Position numbers and translations under genes: made by a program. The notes under the pieces are model-generated. The model made no database searches, was not told the origin of the DNA, and saw only the letters and a program-made list of their open reading frames with translations. From Candidatus Obscuribacteraceae bacterium (GTDB lineage Bacteria; Cyanobacteriota; Vampirovibrionia; Obscuribacterales; Obscuribacteraceae), in the NCBI GenBank assembly GCA_044229845.1, contig JBGASG010000004.1:128001-192000 (forward strand): a stretch of 64,000 nucleotides of DNA, written 5' to 3'. Shown in pieces: positions 37,345 to 51,111 of the stretch. Each line of letters opens with the position of its first letter. The stretch's first letter is position 1.

Positions 37345-40300
37345 TTACTGCGGCAAGGCTGCCGCTCGACGGGTCAACTCTTCATCCAGACGATCTACTG
37401 TTTTCTGAGTCAACCAAGGTCGGACTATCTTGGCAAATTTTTGCGCGTCGCTGGTTGAAAGATCGCGAATGTAGTACGCGATGAAATCTTCATGATCGAT
37501 CTGCTTTCCCCCGGCTCTCAGAAATTCATTCTGATACGCCAGTGCTCGATCGAGGGGATCTTTGGACCTCAGAAGTCCAAAGAGAGTTTCGCTTAGGGGC
37601 TTTCCTTGAGACAGACTCTCTCTAACAGACGCGGCATATGTGGATAGCAGCTTTTGGAAATGAGCATCGACAGCCTGCGATTGGGCTGGATGTGACCAAC
37701 GCAATTGTTGGATCAGGTCGGCCAGACTGGTCAATACTTTGTCGTTAGCTTCCCCGCCAGCCTTAACACCAGCTTGAAATAACAGGAAAGCGCGTTCCTT
37801 GTCCGCGGCGTTCAATGCAGCCTCGAAAAATGCCTGCCCCTGTCCCTGAAATCCTTTATGCTGCAAGGCGTGCTGCAACACCTGGTCAGCTTGTGGCGTC
37901 GACAGCCCTCGCAGCGCGTCTTGGAGGGACTGCCCATTAATTGCCCCTCGCGAAGCCACAAAGTCGAGCAGCGCTATTCGCGCTTCCGGTGTAGGAATCT
38001 GCGCGAACCAGGATCTGACGACGCGAACGTCGGACGCATCTTTAACGATTGTCGGATTGAGGCTGACTTCCCGCAACAGATTCAATGTCGCCGCGCTTTG
38101 ATCTTGCTTGACCAGATAAGACAGCGCTTCCAGGGCAACTTTCTGATCACCGGTCTTAACACTTGATTCGACCAATTGGCGCGTGCGATCGGCAGGCAAG
38201 ATGCTATCAGCCACGGCCCGCCCCGATGGTGTCTCGCGCAGTTGTTGTAAGAATCTCAAGTGATTGACGATCTGCTCTTGCTGAGAGCCTGATGCGATGT
38301 CTTTCTCAAGTTGACGCCTGTAGACAGGCAAAATTTCCTTCTCCACGTAGGCGATTCGCTGTCGCAGTACTTCGGCAGTTACTCCCAACTTTGCAGGATC
38401 GGCTGTGTCCAGAACGCGCTTGAGGAAGGCGGCCGCCGCAATCGAGCGAGCCGGCGCATTGTGCACAAGCAGAGAAAATTCCTCGGCGCTACCACGCAAG
38501 AACTGCTCTCCGAAGTGCACGGCCCAGTTCTCGCCCACATCTTTGGTTGCGTACTCGCGAGCATAGAATCCGTTTCGTTCGACCCTTGCCGCCTGCTCGA
38601 AGGCAGCAAATTCTTCGGTAAATTTGAATTGCAGTGTATGGGCATTCTCGTGTTGCAAAACAAAGAGTAGCTGATCTGCTTTCGTGCCTCCGAAAAAGCG
38701 AATTTCAAATTGGGTGGACGCGTCAGCCAATACTCCATATGAGCCCTGCGGCTTGATTTTTTCCTCGGTTAGCTGAATGCGTTTTATTGCAGAGTCGCGG
38801 CTGGGTAGAAACGGCAGCGACTGCAAGACTTGTTCCGGCAATACAGCGTCACGCAATGGGTGTTTGCTGAGCGTCTCTTGAGCGATTCGAGCGGCCTGCG
38901 CCTTGACCGGATCCGTTGCATTGACTTCGGCCGCAGCCAAGCGCAGTTGCCTAATCTCATCCAGCTTAGCAGCGTAAGCCTTGTCGATCACAAACTCAAG
39001 ATCCGAGCCGCGCACCTTGTAAATCAGAACATCGCGCTCTTCAGTTGGAATTCGCTCGTTCTCTTTAAGCGGCGGGCGGCGAGCGTCAGAAATGGGTAAC
39101 TGAGCTTTGTCGGCGCGCGGTGGCTCTAGCAGCCTGTCCAGTTCAGGTTGATTGAGAGCGTTGCGCGGGCGAGTTTCATCAAATCCGAAGCGCCGCAAAA
39201 ACTCCTCTCCTTTTTGCCGCGCCACATTTGGGTCTAACCCCGCCTTCCTGACTATGCTATCGAGCGTTGTCCCTTCCAGATCACCAGGTACTTTCGATCG
39301 CAGAAACGGCAACGCGCCAGCTGTAAAGACGCCACCAAGAATAAAGGCGGTCAGGGCTCGTGAGAGTGTCTCGGCTGTGGGCTTGCCATCCAGTACTGAC
39401 TCCAATGCCTGAATCAAACTGTTGGACCCTCCGCCTATCAACGAGGAAGGTAAGAGTTCGTTCTTGATGAAATCGCGCACCAATCGGCTGCCGTGCTCTG
39501 CCAGTCCTTTTTCGACTGCCGACTTTAACGCGGCTTCCTGACCCGGCTTTGCGAAGGCCGCAACAAAACGCTCGAACTCCGCCTGATGGATTTTGCCACC
39601 ATTCTCGAATGAGTTTCTGACCAGCCTCGAAAGCTCAACCGCGAAAGCTCCCTGCCGCTCTTCAGGAACCAGACTCTTAGCCAGTTTTGCTGTGGTAAGG
39701 GCTGTCTGATCGCCGAGCTGCAGCAGCCTGGTCAGGTGCTCAGGTCTGAGGAAGTTGAGAGCCGCGAGCGACCCGCCCAGAAGCGCATCTCGCAATATAC
39801 GCTGATCGTAGTCCTGCCCCAGGAGCAGCGCCTTACCAATTGGACGAGCCTCGGCTGCCGCCAGAATGGCAATGGCTCTGAAGGCCAGGTGCACTCCCGG
39901 ACTGCCGGCGGGCAGGGTGGCCAGAGTAATTGCCAGGTCTACAACCAGGTCGGCTGTGGCAGTCTTGGAGTCGATAAATAATCTTAGAGCGTTCTGAGTA
40001 TTCTCTATGAGCCGCTGCTGTTCTTGAAGAGGCAACTCGGCAAAACGCTTTGATGCTTCTGCCAAACGAGCGGCGTGTTCTTGATGCGCATTATCAGCAA
40101 GCACACCCGTGCCGGTAAACAGAGCAGCGAATTCAGCAAACCAACCTCCTCGACTCTGATAATACTCGCGCAAACTTTGATCGAAAGCCTGTCTTTGATC
40201 GCGCGGTATTTCTTTGCCCAGGCGCCCAAGCTCAAAAGCATCTCCCTTGGAGAAAGTCGATTCTAGTGAGTGCTCAAATGAGCCGTAGTTTCTCTCGTAT

Positions 40301-42501
40301 CGATCTTTGAGAGCCGGGCGCAGCCCCGGTGGTAATTCGTCGAAAGCAGCTTTTACAGAAGCTTTGTCCTTCGCCGCGATCGCCAGGCGCAAACGATCAG
40401 CAGGGTCTAAAAAACCATTTTCAGCCGTCCGCAGTGCAATGGTTCTCTCTTCGGGGGACCAATAGCCTATGATGCGCTTTTGCAAGTCGCCGTCGCCAAG
40501 AAACTTTTGCCGTTCTTCGGGACTAGCATTAGCAATCTGCCTGGCAAAAGCAATGCGATCATAAGTGCCAAGACTTGCCTGCTGCGCAAGCGGCAAGCTG
40601 CCTTTCTCCAGAAGCGGCTTGACGTAAGCCTCAAATAAGTCAACTTTGCCATCGACCGCTTTTATTGGCTGCGGTCGATCGATTTGATTGAACAAATCTT
40701 TTGAAACCTTAGGAAAAGCCTGGCTTAGAGCCTCTTGCAGCCGACTATCTTCCGGACGCGGATTGAGTATGCGATCCTTCAGGTTCGGATCTTTTCTGAT
40801 TGCCTCTTGAATGTCTTGCAACAGTTGTCTGACTCGTTGCGGGTCGGTAGCAAACGTGCGAGACTCGGCCGCGAGAAGCAGTTTATCCGTCAAAGGAAGT
40901 TCAGGTTTACGCCCTTCGGCAGCCTGCTGCAAAAGGCTGCGCGCCGCGTCTTTGCCCACATCGCTGCGTACGAGAGAGAGTATGGTTTCATCTACTTCTT
41001 TTCTGTATTTCTCGTCGCGGGCATGTCTTTCCAGCGAACCTTTATCTATGCCCTCCAGCAGCCGCAAAACTCGCTCGTCGTCAGGAATACCGCGTTGTCC
41101 TTCTTGCTTCAAGTTGAACAAGAATCTACCTGAGGCAACAATCGACTGTTCGAAACTTCTCACCTCGGGAGCAAATTTTTGGTCCAGGATTCTCTCACTG
41201 CGGGACAGCGCATCACCAGATTGCAAAGTGCGCAGAAGCTCGCGCACGCGCTCCAAGTAGGAGGGATCTGATTTTGCTCTTTCCCAATCAGCGCGACTGA
41301 TGTTTTGTAGATCGCTTTGGATAGCCGTCTCGCTGCCGTTGCGAAAAACACCGCGCTGCTGAGCCAGCTTGGCGATCAACTCGCTGCCACCATCATTGAT
41401 GTAGTCAAGCCACTTGATCGCTTCCGTAGGGTTGGTGGCATCGGTCAGGACTTTTTTGGCGTCGTCGTATTCTTTCAAAGACTGCAGTTGGCTGGGATTC
41501 AGTTCGCCAGGATTGCCGCCCTTGTCGAGCCATTGCCTGAGCCTCTCTCCTTCCCCGATAGCCAGCCTGCGATCGGCTGGCAGTTGATCGATGGTCTGCT
41601 TTATCGCAGCTTCGCCGGTGGAGACAAGACCAATTTGCTCCTTGAGGAGCGTTTTAAAGGACAAGCGTCCGGTTTGCAGCAACTCTTGAGCCAGGCGCGA
41701 CTCGCGCGTCGGATCGTAAGAGACCTCGCCTGTGATTCTGTCCACAGACGGCTGCCCGAAAGTCTTGGTAATCTCGGCCGGACTGAGCTCCTTTTGCAAG
41801 CGCTGGCGTCCCGCTTCACTCGCCGTGCGTAACGCCCGCTCGAAAAGATGGAAGTTTCGCTCCGTCAGGGCAGCGCGAGCCAGATCTATATCATCTTGAG
41901 GAGTCCGCTGATCGGTGCCCTTCAGAAAGATGCCCAGCGCCTTTTGCTCCGCCTCTGACAGGCGCCCATGTTTGGCGAGCCGATCGAGAAGATTGGTGCC
42001 ATCGGTTTGCTGTGTTAGTAACTTGAGTTCGCGGATTTGATCGGAGTTGAGCGTCGACAGCGTATCGGTCAATTCCTTGAATGTGGTGCCCGGCTTCAAG
42101 AGACTCTCATTCAGTTCACGCAATAGACGCTCCACCCGATGCGCGTCGAATCTCAGATCTGCACTTCTGGGTTGTCTATCGGGAGCAGGCACCTCCGAAT
42201 TAGAGCCGCTGATTGCGTTTCGTTCTCCAACCAGGGTGACCGGCAGCGTCGGCAGGCGCTCGCCCGCCCTCAACAGATCTGGCTGGCCAAGAAACGCTAC
42301 CTGCGGCAGTGCGTCGCCACTGTCGCGAAGTGTCAGGGAGGGAAAGCCATGTCTGATTGGTTCCGCAGCGGCCAATGCCACCGCCGGCGGCGGCGCCTCG
42401 ACTCGCATATCTACTAAAGGAAAGACTAGTGCGGCTTCTGGCGCCGGTTCCGGCGCGTCCGTCCGCAGGGCGAGTTTAGACTCGGAATCCGATGAATCCA
42501 T
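37345..42501 (-). CDS. 1718-aa hypothetical protein: helical (annexin-like) repeats, central hydrophobic segments, HExxH zinc-metallopeptidase-like domain
   Basis: LQHENAHTL...YATKDVGENWA; hydrophobic VVDLAITLATLPAG, AFILGGVFTAGALPFL; no signal peptide. Confidence 0.7.
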   Translation of the reverse strand: MDSSDSESKLALRTDAPEPAPEAALVFPLVDMRVEAPPPAVALAAAEPIRHGFPSLTLRDSGDALPQVAFLGQPDLLRAGERLPTLPVTLVGERNAISGSNSEVPAPDRQPRSADLRFDAHRVERLLRELNESLLKPGTTFKELTDTLSTLNSDQIRELKLLTQQTDGTNLLDRLAKHGRLSEAEQKALGIFLKGTDQRTPQDDIDLARAALTERNFHLFERALRTASEAGRQRLQKELSPAEITKTFGQPSVDRITGEVSYDPTRESRLAQELLQTGRLSFKTLLKEQIGLVSTGEAAIKQTIDQLPADRRLAIGEGERLRQWLDKGGNPGELNPSQLQSLKEYDDAKKVLTDATNPTEAIKWLDYINDGGSELIAKLAQQRGVFRNGSETAIQSDLQNISRADWERAKSDPSYLERVRELLRTLQSGDALSRSERILDQKFAPEVRSFEQSIVASGRFLFNLKQEGQRGIPDDERVLRLLEGIDKGSLERHARDEKYRKEVDETILSLVRSDVGKDAARSLLQQAAEGRKPELPLTDKLLLAAESRTFATDPQRVRQLLQDIQEAIRKDPNLKDRILNPRPEDSRLQEALSQAFPKVSKDLFNQIDRPQPIKAVDGKVDLFEAYVKPLLEKGSLPLAQQASLGTYDRIAFARQIANASPEERQKFLGDGDLQKRIIGYWSPEERTIALRTAENGFLDPADRLRLAIAAKDKASVKAAFDELPPGLRPALKDRYERNYGSFEHSLESTFSKGDAFELGRLGKEIPRDQRQAFDQSLREYYQSRGGWFAEFAALFTGTGVLADNAHQEHAARLAEASKRFAELPLQEQQRLIENTQNALRLFIDSKTATADLVVDLAITLATLPAGSPGVHLAFRAIAILAAAEARPIGKALLLGQDYDQRILRDALLGGSLAALNFLRPEHLTRLLQLGDQTALTTAKLAKSLVPEERQGAFAVELSRLVRNSFENGGKIHQAEFERFVAAFAKPGQEAALKSAVEKGLAEHGSRLVRDFIKNELLPSSLIGGGSNSLIQALESVLDGKPTAETLSRALTAFILGGVFTAGALPFLRSKVPGDLEGTTLDSIVRKAGLDPNVARQKGEEFLRRFGFDETRPRNALNQPELDRLLEPPRADKAQLPISDARRPPLKENERIPTEERDVLIYKVRGSDLEFVIDKAYAAKLDEIRQLRLAAAEVNATDPVKAQAARIAQETLSKHPLRDAVLPEQVLQSLPFLPSRDSAIKRIQLTEEKIKPQGSYGVLADASTQFEIRFFGGTKADQLLFVLQHENAHTLQFKFTEEFAAFEQAARVERNGFYAREYATKDVGENWAVHFGEQFLRGSAEEFSLLVHNAPARSIAAAAFLKRVLDTADPAKLGVTAEVLRQRIAYVEKEILPVYRRQLEKDIASGSQQEQIVNHLRFLQQLRETPSGRAVADSILPADRTRQLVESSVKTGDQKVALEALSYLVKQDQSAATLNLLREVSLNPTIVKDASDVRVVRSWFAQIPTPEARIALLDFVASRGAINGQSLQDALRGLSTPQADQVLQHALQHKGFQGQGQAFFEAALNAADKERAFLLFQAGVKAGGEANDKVLTSLADLIQQLRWSHPAQSQAVDAHFQKLLSTYAASVRESLSQGKPLSETLFGLLRSKDPLDRALAYQNEFLRAGGKQIDHEDFIAYYIRDLSTSDAQKFAKIVRPWLTQKTVDRLDEELTRRAAALPQ

Positions 42502-48424: not shown

Positions 48425-48498
48425 TCTGCACTATTTTTCGAAAATGTAGTGCAGATAACAACAGGGATGTTGACTACTGCTCAGTTCTAAGTTAGTCT
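48425..48498 (+). promoter_or_regulatory. palindromic operator plus sigma70 promoter of pilin-like gene 1
   Basis: TCTGCACTA-N13-TAGTGCAGA (48425-48455), TTGACT-N17-TAGTCT (48470-48498). Confidence 0.7.
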
Positions 48499-48584
48499 TG
48501 CCAGACAGATTGCTTTCGGCAACCCTCGGTCCTCTTTTACTAAACAATCGAGCTTCTTTTCACCGCGTCAGGGAGATGCTTCCT

Positions 48585-49088
48585 ATGAAAACATTGTCCA
48601 AACTTACTATGGCCGCCGCTATGTCCCTCGCCCTCACCGCCCCAGCAATGGCGCAAGATGTGTTCGGAACAGCTGATACCGGAGCTACCGGTGCCACCAA
48701 CAGCAGCGGCAACACCACGTTGACCCAAACCCAAATGAACGGCGTACAACAAGCCCCAGAACTGCAAGGTGCCACCAACGGTACCGTCGGTCCGCAAGGC
48801 GATGATGCCACCGTCATTATGGGCGTCAACACAGCCGGTACGGTTCGCGTGAACAACCTCGCCAACTTGGAAGCGTTGCTCAACATCATCGCGAACGGTA
48901 TGGAAATTCTTGGTATCGCCTGGGGCGGACCGACAATGATCATGGGCTTCATGCACATGGCTGCCGGTACGCAAGATGCTATGAAGCGCGTCCTTTGGGG
49001 CGGCGCTGGTGTGACAGGCGGTCTCGCGACCCCTGGCTGCATCAACTGGCTCGTTGCATCGGCTCGCGACGCCAACCTGTTCAGCTAA
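48585..49088 (+). CDS. secreted VirB2/TrbC-pilin-like protein, copy 1
   Basis: Sec signal peptide ending AMA|Q, Gly/Thr/Asn-rich segment, then two hydrophobic helices separated by a short charged loop (GTQDAMKR). Confidence 0.7.
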   Translation: MKTLSKLTMAAAMSLALTAPAMAQDVFGTADTGATGATNSSGNTTLTQTQMNGVQQAPELQGATNGTVGPQGDDATVIMGVNTAGTVRVNNLANLEALLNIIANGMEILGIAWGGPTMIMGFMHMAAGTQDAMKRVLWGGAGVTGGLATPGCINWLVASARDANLFS

Positions 49089-49110
49089 TCGCTGTACGGA
49101 TCTAGATATA

Positions 49111-49142
49111 GGAAGGGGCGGGCAACCGCCCCTTCCGCTTTG
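49111..49142 (+). terminator. Rho-independent terminator after copy 1
   Basis: GGAAGGGGCGG-GCAA-CCGCCCCTTCC then GCTTT. Confidence 0.8.
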
Positions 49143-49260
49143 TCAGTCACTCCTCGACTTCATCGACTCCCATGGATAACCCTGTCACCGGCACTCCTTC
49201 AAAGTGCTACTTTGAATAAAGGATCACCCAGAGCATCTCCAACCACGTGGGTACGAGACC

Positions 49261-49557
49261 ATGAAACTGCCATTCTCCAGCCTAGTCTTGCGCGCTTCCG
49301 GCTTGCTGCCGGCGGTCTTTATGTATGCGAGCGAAGCGGCTCATGCCTGTGGTGGTAGTGGTGGTCCAAATCTCTTTCAGGTGGGTCTTCTGACTTTGGC
49401 TACCGCCTGCTGCCTGTTCGGCACACCCTTTATCGCCTTCGGGTTCATCAACTTTCTGTCCGGCGACACCAGAGGGGGCGCTCTGCGCGTCCTTACCTTT
49501 ATAGGTGCGATGGGCATAGTTGTGACCTCGATAGTCGTGCTCGAACACACCCACTAA
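49261..49557 (+). CDS. small divergent pilin-like membrane protein
   Basis: Signal peptide ending AHA|C; GTPFIAFGFINFLSGDTRGGALRVL aligns with GPTMIMGFMHMAAGTQDAMKRVL of the neighbours. Confidence 0.55.
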   Translation: MKLPFSSLVLRASGLLPAVFMYASEAAHACGGSGGPNLFQVGLLTLATACCLFGTPFIAFGFINFLSGDTRGGALRVLTFIGAMGIVVTSIVVLEHTH

Positions 49558-49606
49558 GGGCATCCAGGCGCCTTTGCGCCGGCCGCCCAAACAAGTCCCC
49601 GAAAAA

Positions 49607-49681
49607 TCTGCATTTTCTTCCGGAAAATGTAATGCATTTAACAAAATAACGGTTGACTTGTAAGGGGGTTGCACTTAATCT
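49607..49681 (+). promoter_or_regulatory. operator plus sigma70 promoter of pilin-like gene 2
   Basis: TCTGCATTTTCTTCCGGAAAATGTAATGCA (49607-49636), TTGACT-N17-TAATCT (49653-49681); same spacing as copy 1 within 1 nt. Confidence 0.7.
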
Positions 49682-49773
49682 ATTGCCTACGGTTGCGTTG
49701 CAACTATTTTCTGCCCGAACCTTACTAACTATTCGAATACCAATTTCTCTCTCGCCTCGAGGAGGTTTCTTTT

Positions 49774-50280
49774 ATGCGTATTAACCTTACCAACCTCGCC
49801 CTCGCCGCCTCTACCGCCCTCGTACTCGGCGCTCCAGCAATGGCGCAAGACGTGTTCGGTACCGCTGACACCGGAGCTACTGGTGCCACCAACAGCAGCG
49901 GCAACACCACTCTTACCCAAACCCAAATGAACGGCGTTCAACAAGCCCCGGAACTGCAAGGTGCCACCAACGGTACAGTCGGTCCGCAAGGCGATGATGC
50001 CACCGTCATTATGGGCGTCAACACTGCTGGTACAGTTCGCGTCAACAACCTGGCCAACTTGGAAGCGTTGCTCAACATCATCGCCAACGGTATGGAAATT
50101 CTGGGTATTGCGTGGGGCGGACCTACAATGATCATGGGCTTCATGCACATGGCCGCCGGCACCCAAGATGCCATGAAGAGAGTGCTGTGGGGCGGCGCCG
50201 GTGTAACCGGTGGTCTCGCAACCCCAGGCTGCATCAACTGGCTAGTCGCATCGGCTCGCGACGCCAACCTGTTCAGCTAA
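49774..50280 (+). CDS. secreted VirB2/TrbC-pilin-like protein, copy 2
   Basis: GAGGAGG RBS; mature sequence identical to copy 1. Confidence 0.7.
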   Translation: MRINLTNLALAASTALVLGAPAMAQDVFGTADTGATGATNSSGNTTLTQTQMNGVQQAPELQGATNGTVGPQGDDATVIMGVNTAGTVRVNNLANLEALLNIIANGMEILGIAWGGPTMIMGFMHMAAGTQDAMKRVLWGGAGVTGGLATPGCINWLVASARDANLFS

Positions 50281-50301
50281 GTTTTTCCCCCGCCAACGCC
50301 A

Positions 50302-50333
50302 ACCAGGGACCTCCCGAAAGGGAGGTTTTTGGT
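50302..50333 (+). terminator. Rho-independent terminator after copy 2
   Basis: ACCAGGGACCTCCC-GAAA-GGGAGGTTTTTGGT. Confidence 0.85.
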
Positions 50334-50412
50334 ATTTTCAAATCGTTTTGAAGACTCTCAAATCCCGCTCATAGAGCGGGATTCTGCTTTGCGCGAGCTA
50401 GGGTAAAGCGCC

Positions 50413-50441
50413 TTGAGTGCAAGAAACAATCGTCGTAAGCT
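50413..50441 (+). promoter_or_regulatory. sigma70 promoter of pilin-like gene 3
   Basis: TTGAGT-N17-TAAGCT followed by the GGGTTGC-GTT-GTAACCC element also seen after the copy 2 promoter. Confidence 0.6.
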
Positions 50442-50528
50442 CAGCTTATGGGTTGCGTTGTAACCCAGTCCACAGTACTTACTTACTACTTGTTTCACCA
50501 TTCATCTCCACAGGGAGGTCGTTTTACT

Positions 50529-51038
50529 ATGGGTAATTTTCTGACCAAACTCACACTGGGAGCGGGCGTCGGCTTGATGCTCGCTGCACCAGGCGCGATG
50601 GCACAAGACGTTTTCGGCACTGCCGACACCGGAGCGAGCGGGCTCCAGCACTCGAGCGGCAACACAACACTCACACAAACCACCATGAACGGAGTACAAC
50701 AAGCACCGGAATTACAAGGCTCGACTTTCGGCACCATTGGTCCACAACAGGAAGACGCCACAGTGATCATGGGCGTCAACACTGCCGGCACGGTTCGCGT
50801 GAACAACCTCGCCAATTTAGAAGCTCTGCTCAACATCATCGCCAACGGCATGGAAATTCTCGGCATCGCCTGGGGTGGTCCGACCATGATCATGGGCTTC
50901 ATGCACATGGCCGCCGGAACGCAAGATGCGATGAAGCGAGTCTTGTGGGGCGGTGCCGGAGTCACCGGTGGTCTGGCTACGCCAGGTTGCATCAACTGGT
51001 TGGTGGCATCAGCCCGCGACGCCAACCTGTTTAGTTAA
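50529..51038 (+). CDS. secreted VirB2/TrbC-pilin-like protein, copy 3 (variant N-terminal mature segment)
   Basis: GGGAGG RBS; identical to copies 1 and 2 from DATVIMG to the C-terminus. Confidence 0.7.
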   Translation: MGNFLTKLTLGAGVGLMLAAPGAMAQDVFGTADTGASGLQHSSGNTTLTQTTMNGVQQAPELQGSTFGTIGPQQEDATVIMGVNTAGTVRVNNLANLEALLNIIANGMEILGIAWGGPTMIMGFMHMAAGTQDAMKRVLWGGAGVTGGLATPGCINWLVASARDANLFS

Positions 51039-51079: not shown

Positions 51080-51111
51080 ACCAATGACCTCCCGCAAGGG
51101 AGGTTTTTGGT
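51080..51111 (+). terminator. Rho-independent terminator after copy 3
   Basis: ACCAATGACCTCCC-GCAA-GGGAGGTTTTTGGT, near-identical to the copy 2 terminator. Confidence 0.85.

Follow-up and report, generated by a model that had tools for sequence, protein, structure and literature searches.

A near-invariant, multicopy hairpin protein of the Obscuribacterales as the probable pilin of a domesticated type IV secretion system

Introduction

The question raised by this locus is what kind of small membrane protein a bacterium would encode three times side by side, in genes whose DNA has changed at synonymous sites while the mature product is the same or nearly so. The three genes lie in a 64-kb stretch of DNA from Candidatus Obscuribacteraceae bacterium (contig JBGASG010000004.1), the whole of which is referred to here as the window; coordinates without a contig prefix are positions in it. 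The Obscuribacterales, to which the organism belongs, are uncultured, non-photosynthetic relatives of cyanobacteria. A first-pass annotation had read the genes as an array of VirB2/TrbC-like pilin genes, derived from one old duplication, possibly serving a pilus decoupled from a mobile element, and with no secretion system of this kind nearby. Here we propose that the Obscuribacterales have a chromosomal (domesticated) type IV secretion system (T4SS), passed on by vertical descent, whose major, VirB2-like pilin is probably the product of the array genes, a reading drawn from an order-wide multicopy family, a membrane hairpin, near-invariance, a shared promoter pattern, RNA contigs and two VirB4 operons.

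Results

Three genes encode one near-invariant hairpin protein

The array comprises three open reading frames (ORFs) on the plus strand, for which the ORF list and its translations reproduce the coordinates first reported (Table 1). Pairwise comparison of the mature 144-residue proteins of copies 1 and 2 gave no residue difference, despite 35 synonymous codon differences (37 of 432 nucleotides) and no non-synonymous ones, which bears out the strong purifying selection that had been claimed for the array. Copy 3 differs from copy 1 or copy 2 by 10 residues and 60-61 synonymous codons. All of these replacements are at mature positions 12-50, upstream of DATVIMG, from which point the proteins are the same, as had also been noted; five of the ten fall inside the otherwise conserved LQGATNGT..GPQ.D stretch, outside the free linker. 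The net charge of the mature protein is -5.

Sequence, hydropathy and AlphaFold together give a layout of a signal peptide, called by eye from the sequence, followed by a two-helix membrane hairpin with a short loop. The AlphaFold model of the core, built from a diverse alignment, is a helical hairpin (mean pLDDT 79; helices at 26-67 and 74-106) in which the first 25 residues are uncertain; a first model of the full-length protein, built from a near-invariant alignment, reached a pLDDT of 51 and was set aside. The pilin-like layout originally described is therefore upheld, and the family to which the protein might belong is considered in the Discussion.

The array belongs to a family found throughout one order

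We term the family of the three array genes family A. When 5.8 billion proteins were searched, 1023 relatives came up; among the 120 matches listed, those with a name are Candidatus Obscuribacterales. Of the 107 Obscuribacterales genomes searched, 106 have family A matches (1-34 each, fusions and divergent members included), and the genes are often in tandem. It is present in 100/100 genomes of the order against 0/201 other Vampirovibrionia genomes, a profile search found it absent from 250 further genomes of the phylum, and a plasmid search gave two chance hits only. An order-wide family thus takes the place of a single old duplication. The suggested link to the predator Vampirovibrio is likewise unsupported, as family A was not found in these 201 other genomes of the class and the Vampirovibrio system is, in the accessible text of PMC4451040, T-type and largely plasmid-borne.

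In 14 of the 106 positive genomes the best E-value is above 1e-50, that is, they are without an intact close copy. Five of these were checked: in three, the module or the gene upstream of it is cut off by a contig end, in one the neighbour gene is likewise missing, and one could not be decided. Family A may truly have been lost in some of these genomes. The neighbours of the array in the window include AnmK, a CxxCxxCC protein and ThiF, and the neighbourhood of guaB, anmK, the CxxCxxCC gene and thiF is syntenic in a distant genus. The array is therefore not on a mobile element, in agreement with the first-pass annotation.

Across the arrays of 19 genomes, an 88-residue core shows a mean of 5.2 differences between genomes and 0-3.3 within them, and fourfold sites within one genome differ by 14-61% on average. 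Over the 33 residues ahead of the conserved module, identity is 90% for copies of one genome, 78% inside a genus and 40% from one genus to another; the signal-peptide regions of one genome are only 55% identical. In a DNA tree, much of which lacks resolution, several arrays cluster by genome or genus. At fourfold sites of the source genome (G000) and the congeneric G072, divergence is 2-4% for orthologues versus 43-45% for paralogues, indicating that copies 1 and 2 are older than the split of these two genomes. We infer repeated amplification or slow gene conversion, with strong selection for one protein per cell.

Several further members of the family were seen. G000 has a fourth close family A gene at C14:119241-119831, with IS605-family genes on its flanks, and a divergent, Ser-rich stand-alone member at C1:154863-155549; elsewhere, divergent stand-alone 'minor' members are numerous, some of them having long Gly-rich repeats at the N-terminus. 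In G072, one copy with a changed, extended C-terminus lies beside an intact fourth copy and is possibly a decaying duplicate.

Two chromosomal VirB4 operons are core to the same order

None of the eight window proteins scanned is a T4SS protein, so that the statement that no T4SS lies nearby holds within the window; it does not hold genome-wide, since T4SS-type operons are present elsewhere. G000 encodes two VirB4-like ATPases, on contigs C17 and C13, and VirB4 scores above cut-off with PF19044. VirB4-1 is found in 50/50 genomes of the order, mostly at 75-86% identity, and in 0/151 others of the class at E 1e-30, and most genomes of the order have a second VirB4 paralogue of about 30-34% identity. 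The presence of VirB4-like genes somewhere in the genome had been named as a test of the pilin idea; they are present and core to the order, and the idea survives.

In loci from three genera the VirB4 genes lie in two conserved chromosomal operons, A and B. Operon A adjoins riboflavin genes and encodes a lipoprotein (weak OEP and DUF4352 matches), two large VirB6-like membrane proteins, DUF2225, a PrgI-like protein, VirB4-1 and two small proteins with a single transmembrane segment; in G000 no DUF2225 or PrgI-like gene was recovered between the VirB6-like gene and VirB4, whose reading frame falls short of that of relatives. Operon B begins in all three genera with a gene for a 144-residue hairpin protein (family B), followed by a VirB6/TrbL-like giant, DUF2225, a small membrane gene, VirB4-2, a gene for a single transmembrane segment and VirD4, and then in two of the three by Replic_Relax, a relaxase-like gene. 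The coupling protein VirD4 is present in 48/50 genomes of the order and 0/151 others of the class, with PF02534 above cut-off in three relatives; it was not found in G000, where operon B ends at a contig break. The VirB3 and VirB6 labels are weak, being below cut-off (PrgI E 0.005-0.007, TrbL_4 E 0.003, the latter not found in G000), and the VirB8 label is taken from size and position only. The best NCBIfam score of VirB4-1 is to the CD1110 family, and the nearest plasmid VirB4 proteins, among 25 of at least 5000 records, are 22-26% identical.

Family B, at the head of operon B, sits where a pilin gene is expected and behaves like family A. It is found in 101/107 genomes, mostly at 80-100% identity and often in tandem. 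Its language-model neighbours, at 0.87-0.88, are DUF4134, DUF2976, a cluster with TrbC on 17% of its members, and DUF3852; according to the accessible part of PMC10018362, DUF2976 is the candidate major pilin of ICEclc. No pilin gene was recognised in operon A.

Some other features of these loci were recorded. Upstream of operon B are several genes for secreted low-complexity proteins with no Pfam match, and operon B could possibly be a chromosomal DNA-transfer machine. A solitary extra VirB4-1 copy (66% identity) lies outside any operon at C13:100029-102914 in G000, and a divergent stand-alone family B member at C11:28856-29503. Ordinary TrbC pilins above the Pfam cut-off occur in 4/107 genomes of the order; they are separate from families A and B and probably belong to acquired conjugative elements.

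The hairpin module is also a C-terminal tail of other proteins

All of the longer homologues listed (120/120) end in the family A module, and 161/165 family A members of at least 300 residues have a VIT-type body, two of the family A-tailed VIT genes being in G000. The body of one fusion protein matches the TIGR04477 (sorted_by_XrtN), TIGR04286 (MSEP-CTERM) and TIGR02921 models below cut-off. At C18:138458-142455 of G000, a paralogous VIT protein beside an exosortase (best models XrtQ and XrtT, below cut-off) ends instead in a PEP-CTERM-like tail. A PEP-CTERM signal consists of a PEP motif, one transmembrane helix and a basic tail; the array protein itself has no NCBIfam match, and it has two helices and a non-basic tail. 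Family B is fused to the C-terminus of membrane proteins of about 1000 residues in 9/9 long loci fetched, their VIT identity being taken from the layout of one full sequence, which had no NCBIfam match.

In the fusions the outer motifs are conserved (81% and 88% for family A, 89% and 81% for family B), whereas conservation of the membrane hairpin is 34% for family A (132 fusions) and 30% for family B. In the stand-alone proteins the hairpin is conserved at 96% for family A (119 close homologues, a figure biased upward by being taken from top-scoring hits) and 93% for family B (one pair). A hairpin that is conserved when it stands alone and drifts in fusions would be expected if the stand-alone hairpin packs against its own copies. 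Our reading is that the stand-alone hairpin packs into a polymer, and that the fusions use the hairpin as an anchor and keep the surfaces recognised by a partner. If the VIT domains of the fusions lie outside the cytoplasm, as those of exosortase substrates do, both ends of the module would face outward, which is also the topology of a propilin.

Parts of the module occur separately. The N-motif LxGATNGTIGP is present alone in five other, unrelated G000 proteins, two of which are VIT proteins (Table 1), and the C-motif is found within a membrane Ser/Thr kinase, with matches in 13/15 kinase loci fetched, several of them weak. At C3:136440-141649 in G000 are two adjacent membrane Ser/Thr kinases, with relatives in 20/61 genomes; one has the family A C-motif twice in predicted loops and the other a weak N-motif, and it is possible that they are sensors of the pilin pool.

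Upstream elements, terminators and transcription of the array

According to the first-pass annotation each gene has its own promoter, ribosome-binding site and terminator, which was partly borne out. There is a Shine-Dalgarno-like sequence ahead of each of the three genes and a strong hairpin 3' of each (z -5.5 to -6.2; 0/200 shuffles equally stable), although that of copy 1 lacks a good U tract. A consensus promoter scan found no plus-strand promoter. By comparison of genomes, the pattern TTGA-N2-N16..18-TANNNT was found upstream of 43/72 family copies in 19 genomes (shuffled mean 4.5), including each of the three copies in the window, and a leader motif, TTACTA, lies at most 90 nucleotides upstream of 57/72 family copies versus 52/2181 other long ORFs of the genome. 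The candidate promoter of copy 1 scores below the threshold of the consensus scan, and RNA contigs start at 48520-48534. In several genera a AAAATGTA..ACA element stands upstream of the -35 box (48441-48463 and 49621-49644 in the window), and in genera g26 and g29 it is replaced by a CATGACC direct repeat; either is a possible regulator site.

RNA contigs (0-4 differences) from four sludge metatranscriptome studies cover copies 1 and 2 at a depth of 22-249, copy 3 at 3-4 and neighbouring pieces at 2-5, in runs that were selected for containing this stretch, and contig depth cannot rank genes. The data bear on 32 of 91 pieces, and stretches of the window without RNA contigs were not counted as silent. 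The array is transcribed. A high level is merely hinted at, because the runs were pre-selected and contig depth is a poor measure, and the abundance of the subunit that had been assumed is probable from the depth on copies 1 and 2.

Table 1. Features of the array and related loci. Positions are in the window unless a G000 contig is given.
Feature	Position	Strand	Details
Candidate promoter, copy 1	48441..48498	+	AAAATGTA element; -35 TTGACT 48470-48475, 17-nt spacer, -10 TAGTCT 48493-48498
Leader motif TTACTA	48537..48542; also 49722, 50483, 50524	+	conserved upstream of family copies
Copy 1	48585..49088	+	167 residues: signal peptide 1-23, lineage-variable segment ~24-56, conserved 111-residue module
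Conserved module (family A)	48753..49085	+	N-motif APxLQGATNGTIGP, GVNTAGTVRVNNLANLE, two-helix membrane hairpin, C-tail NWLVASARDANLFS; also C-terminus of VIT proteins
Terminator-like hairpin after copy 1	49111..49136	+	z -6.2; weak U tract
Hydrophobic ORF between copies 1 and 2	49261..49557	+	98 residues; unrelated to array genes; low-depth RNA contigs
Candidate promoter, copy 2	49653..49681	+	TTGACT, 17 nt, TAATCT; RNA contigs start 49697-49740
Copy 2	49774..50280	+	168 residues; mature protein as copy 1
Terminator-like hairpin after copy 2	50302..50332	+	z -5.9
Candidate promoter, copy 3	50413..50441	+	TTGAGT, 17 nt, TAAGCT
Copy 3	50529..51038	+	169 residues; 10 substitutions, N-terminal 50 mature residues; RNA contigs shallow
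Intrinsic terminator after copy 3	51086..51105	+	scan and hairpin stability
Operon A in G000	C17:20254-35079
Operon B in G000	C13:1-9400 and C11:163-879		breaks at contig end
N-motif-only proteins in G000	C1:202824-204530, C10:25774-27675, C22:281743-282906, C19:110503-114045, C1:458825-460651

The ORF between copies 1 and 2 matched no family above cut-off in a family scan. Elsewhere in the window, an ORF of 1718 residues (37345-42501, minus strand) lies upstream of arsenate-reductase-like and HtrA-like genes, labels that were assigned by eye.

The C-terminus resembles that of a cyclised pilin

Family A C-termini have Asp at -6 in 320/324 cases and Ala at -5 in 292/324, the tail reading Asp and then ANLFS. 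The accessible text of PMC12037004 describes the H-pilin TrhA as cut after Asp69, losing five residues that begin with Ala, and cyclised. The Asp and five-residue tail are thus common to family A and TrhA, as a resemblance only: no sequence homology of family A to the cyclic pilins TrhA and RP4 TrbC is shown, and the peptidases found in G000 (88% complete) are two tandem LepB-like S26 enzymes, a genome search having revealed no separate TraF-like gene.

Discussion

If the array genes encode the major pilin of a domesticated T4SS, as we think probable, the protein would be exported by Sec and its signal peptide cleaved, leaving an inner-membrane propilin whose two ends are both outside the cytoplasm. 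VirB4, with the VirB6-like proteins, would then extract the propilin and polymerise it into a pilus or an envelope-spanning channel. The likely machine for family A would be that of operon A, operon B having a family B hairpin of its own; this assignment is by elimination, because operon A has no recognised pilin gene and family A is an orphan of the same range. Several gene copies would supply dosage, and we propose that co-assembly is what keeps the copies of one lineage identical, with the 33 exposed residues at the N-terminus changing between genera. VIT proteins and kinases that carry the module or its motifs would remain anchored in the membrane, and their outer motifs would be a tag recognised by this machine, its maturation enzyme or the pilin pool. 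The array would then not be decoupled from a T4SS and would probably serve a chromosomal one.

The nearest known case is that of the Patescibacteria (Candidate Phyla Radiation), which in the accessible parts of PMC12102498 and PMC12857230 have chromosomal T4SSs with VirB2 arrays whose members average 25% identity. Patescibacteria and Obscuribacterales alike have a lineage-wide chromosomal VirB4, PrgI/VirB3-like (weak here) and VirB6-like partners and tandem pilin-like genes, and some T4SS_pilin proteins share with family A a layout of signal, low-complexity linker and hairpin. In the same accessible text, the patescibacterial pilins are often near virB4 and a relaxase is mostly absent, whereas here the array is remote and operon B has VirD4 and Replic_Relax. 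The Obscuribacterales also differ in having two machines and two hairpin families, and VIT fusions are unmentioned for Patescibacteria in that text. Amplified pilin genes of a domesticated T4SS are likewise known from Bartonella Trw and Anaplasma (cited in the accessible parts of PMC12102498 and PMC12857230); there the virB2 copies diversify within a genome, whereas family A is homogenised within a genome and varies between genera. VirB2/TrbC (PF04956), T4SS_pilin (PF18895) and DUF2976/IceB2 share a cleaved signal peptide, a two-helix hairpin and a short basic loop with the array protein, and pilin families of this kind provide the nearest named language-model neighbours. Family A differs from conjugative pilins in having no match to a hidden Markov model (HMM), in not being found on plasmids, in its reuse as a C-terminal domain and in carrying about 65 additional residues at the N-terminus of the mature protein, of which half are invariant. 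Our search of mainly open literature, without supplementary tables, found none on these operons or hairpin families, and no lifestyle marker for Obscuribacterales; in its accessible part, PMC8600333 covers only one Melainabacteria genome and plasmids.

Several observations count against identification as a pilin. Membership of the VirB2/TrbC family is not established: sequence searches of Pfam, NCBIfam and the PDB with the protein and two alignments found neither a pilin nor any other family, and the PF04956 and PF18895 HMMs gave no match above cut-off, so that the confident match anticipated from profiles or Foldseek was obtained neither to VirB2/TrbC nor to another family. T4SS_pilin was touched by only 1 of 31 family members (E 0.069), and the weak PF18895 and PF04956 hits fetched from the order are all in loci that contain neither family A nor family B. 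Alignment of family A to five T4SS_pilin proteins by hhalign was in register over 66 columns, with E 0.011 and a probability of 3.8%. In a decoy test, four of the five T4SS_pilin sequences (three of them near-identical) were in the top 1-3%, beaten by 3-8 of 250 membrane hairpins; two TrbC sequences were unremarkable and one unrelated decoy scored far higher. The T4SS_pilin profile test was underpowered because few sequences could be gathered, attempts at a deep profile having yielded seven close proteins, three spurious viral loci, two genome loci and no plasmid match. The language-model neighbours of family A (DUF3852 0.83, DUF4134 0.82), like those of family B, all score below 0.9 and are therefore leads only. 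Homology between families A and B, seen in a by-eye alignment, was unsupported by hhalign and was rejected. Neither operon lies near the array in G000 or in the relative genome G004, and co-distribution is weak evidence because any order-specific core gene shows it. The near-identity of family A copies differs from the diversity of the patescibacterial arrays, the RNA runs were pre-selected and their depths cannot rank genes, and the 96% figure for the stand-alone hairpin is inflated, though the core does differ at a mean of just 5.2 of 88 positions across 19 genomes.

Fold searches were equally unspecific: with the core model, Foldseek gave no match at E<=0.001, and the best VIA-align score was Z 8.6, to generic hairpins, with ATP synthase c-rings at Z 7.0-7.3. 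No conjugative pilin is among the fold-search matches listed, which excludes nothing. ATP synthase c-ring, type IV pilin and Flp pilin were dropped as candidate identities, the protein having a cleavable signal peptide; the motifs of all three are without counterpart in the family A protein.

Other explanations were weighed. We judge it unlikely, though worth serious attention, that the module serves mainly as a signal for sorting or anchoring, analogous to PEP-CTERM, or as an abundant inner-membrane scaffold, in which case the short proteins would be minimal high-copy carriers that never form a pilus, and the T4SS operons would share its range merely because both are order-specific. The lack of significant pilin homology fits this explanation, as do the terminal position of the module in the longer homologues, the predominance of VIT-type bodies, the PEP-CTERM tail that replaces it beside the exosortase and the separate occurrence of the N-motif and C-motif. 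However, in the stand-alone form the passenger amounts to only some 33 residues, and conservation of the hairpin far exceeds that in the fusions, more than a mere tag would call for; family B, the parallel case, stands at the head of a VirB4/VirD4 operon, and the loci examined have no dedicated sorting enzyme next to the array. A subunit of some other envelope polymer (a sheath, fimbria, amyloid-like fibre or ring-shaped membrane oligomer) that is independent of a T4SS seems to us improbable. Invariance, multicopy arrays and deep RNA contigs would suit any abundant polymer, and the fold searches return generic hairpins only, c-rings included, but these matches are not above unrelated rows, assembly genes do not lie beside the array, and family B inside a T4SS operon would be left unexplained.

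The first-pass annotation had offered a cyclic peptide precursor as its alternative, and we hold this, or a circular bacteriocin precursor, to be very improbable. A leader followed by hydrophobic helices, with a possible cleavage site at the conserved Asp and Ala of the tail, is what such a precursor might look like. Circular bacteriocins are cationic and are encoded with transporter and immunity genes alongside. The mature protein is acidic, no transporter, immunity or maturation gene is among the neighbours scanned, and the family is an invariant core gene of a whole order whose module is fused to membrane proteins of 900-1200 residues.

Returning to the pilin as the preferred identity, the fusions could be accommodated by a broader proposal that we put forward only tentatively, namely that there are two domesticated T4SS machines, each with a near-invariant pilin that has been reused as a sorting tag. 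Exosortase-sorted VIT proteins resemble the fusions in that the body of a fusion protein is a below-cut-off match to them and one paralogue retains PEP-CTERM beside an exosortase; they differ in that the family A tail is a two-helix module of 100-111 residues that is also a free, multicopy gene. In VIT surface proteins, pilin module A or B would have taken the place of the PEP-CTERM tail of the exosortase route. With pilin motifs also present in membrane kinases, the pilus machine or its maturation enzyme may address, process or be monitored by these proteins.

An apparently abundant, near-invariant envelope protein and two order-wide secretion operons provide a concrete target for proteomics and electron microscopy, in a source organism that is transcriptionally active in sludge. 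The fusions, seen independently in two hairpin families, suggest an undescribed way to address surface proteins and offer a handle on bacterial VIT proteins. If true, a pilin that acts as a sorting signal would add a new route of protein display and would point to a contact-dependent lifestyle across the order, and study of the protein could show whether the Obscuribacterales contact other cells, be it in predation, symbiosis or the exchange of chromosomal DNA.

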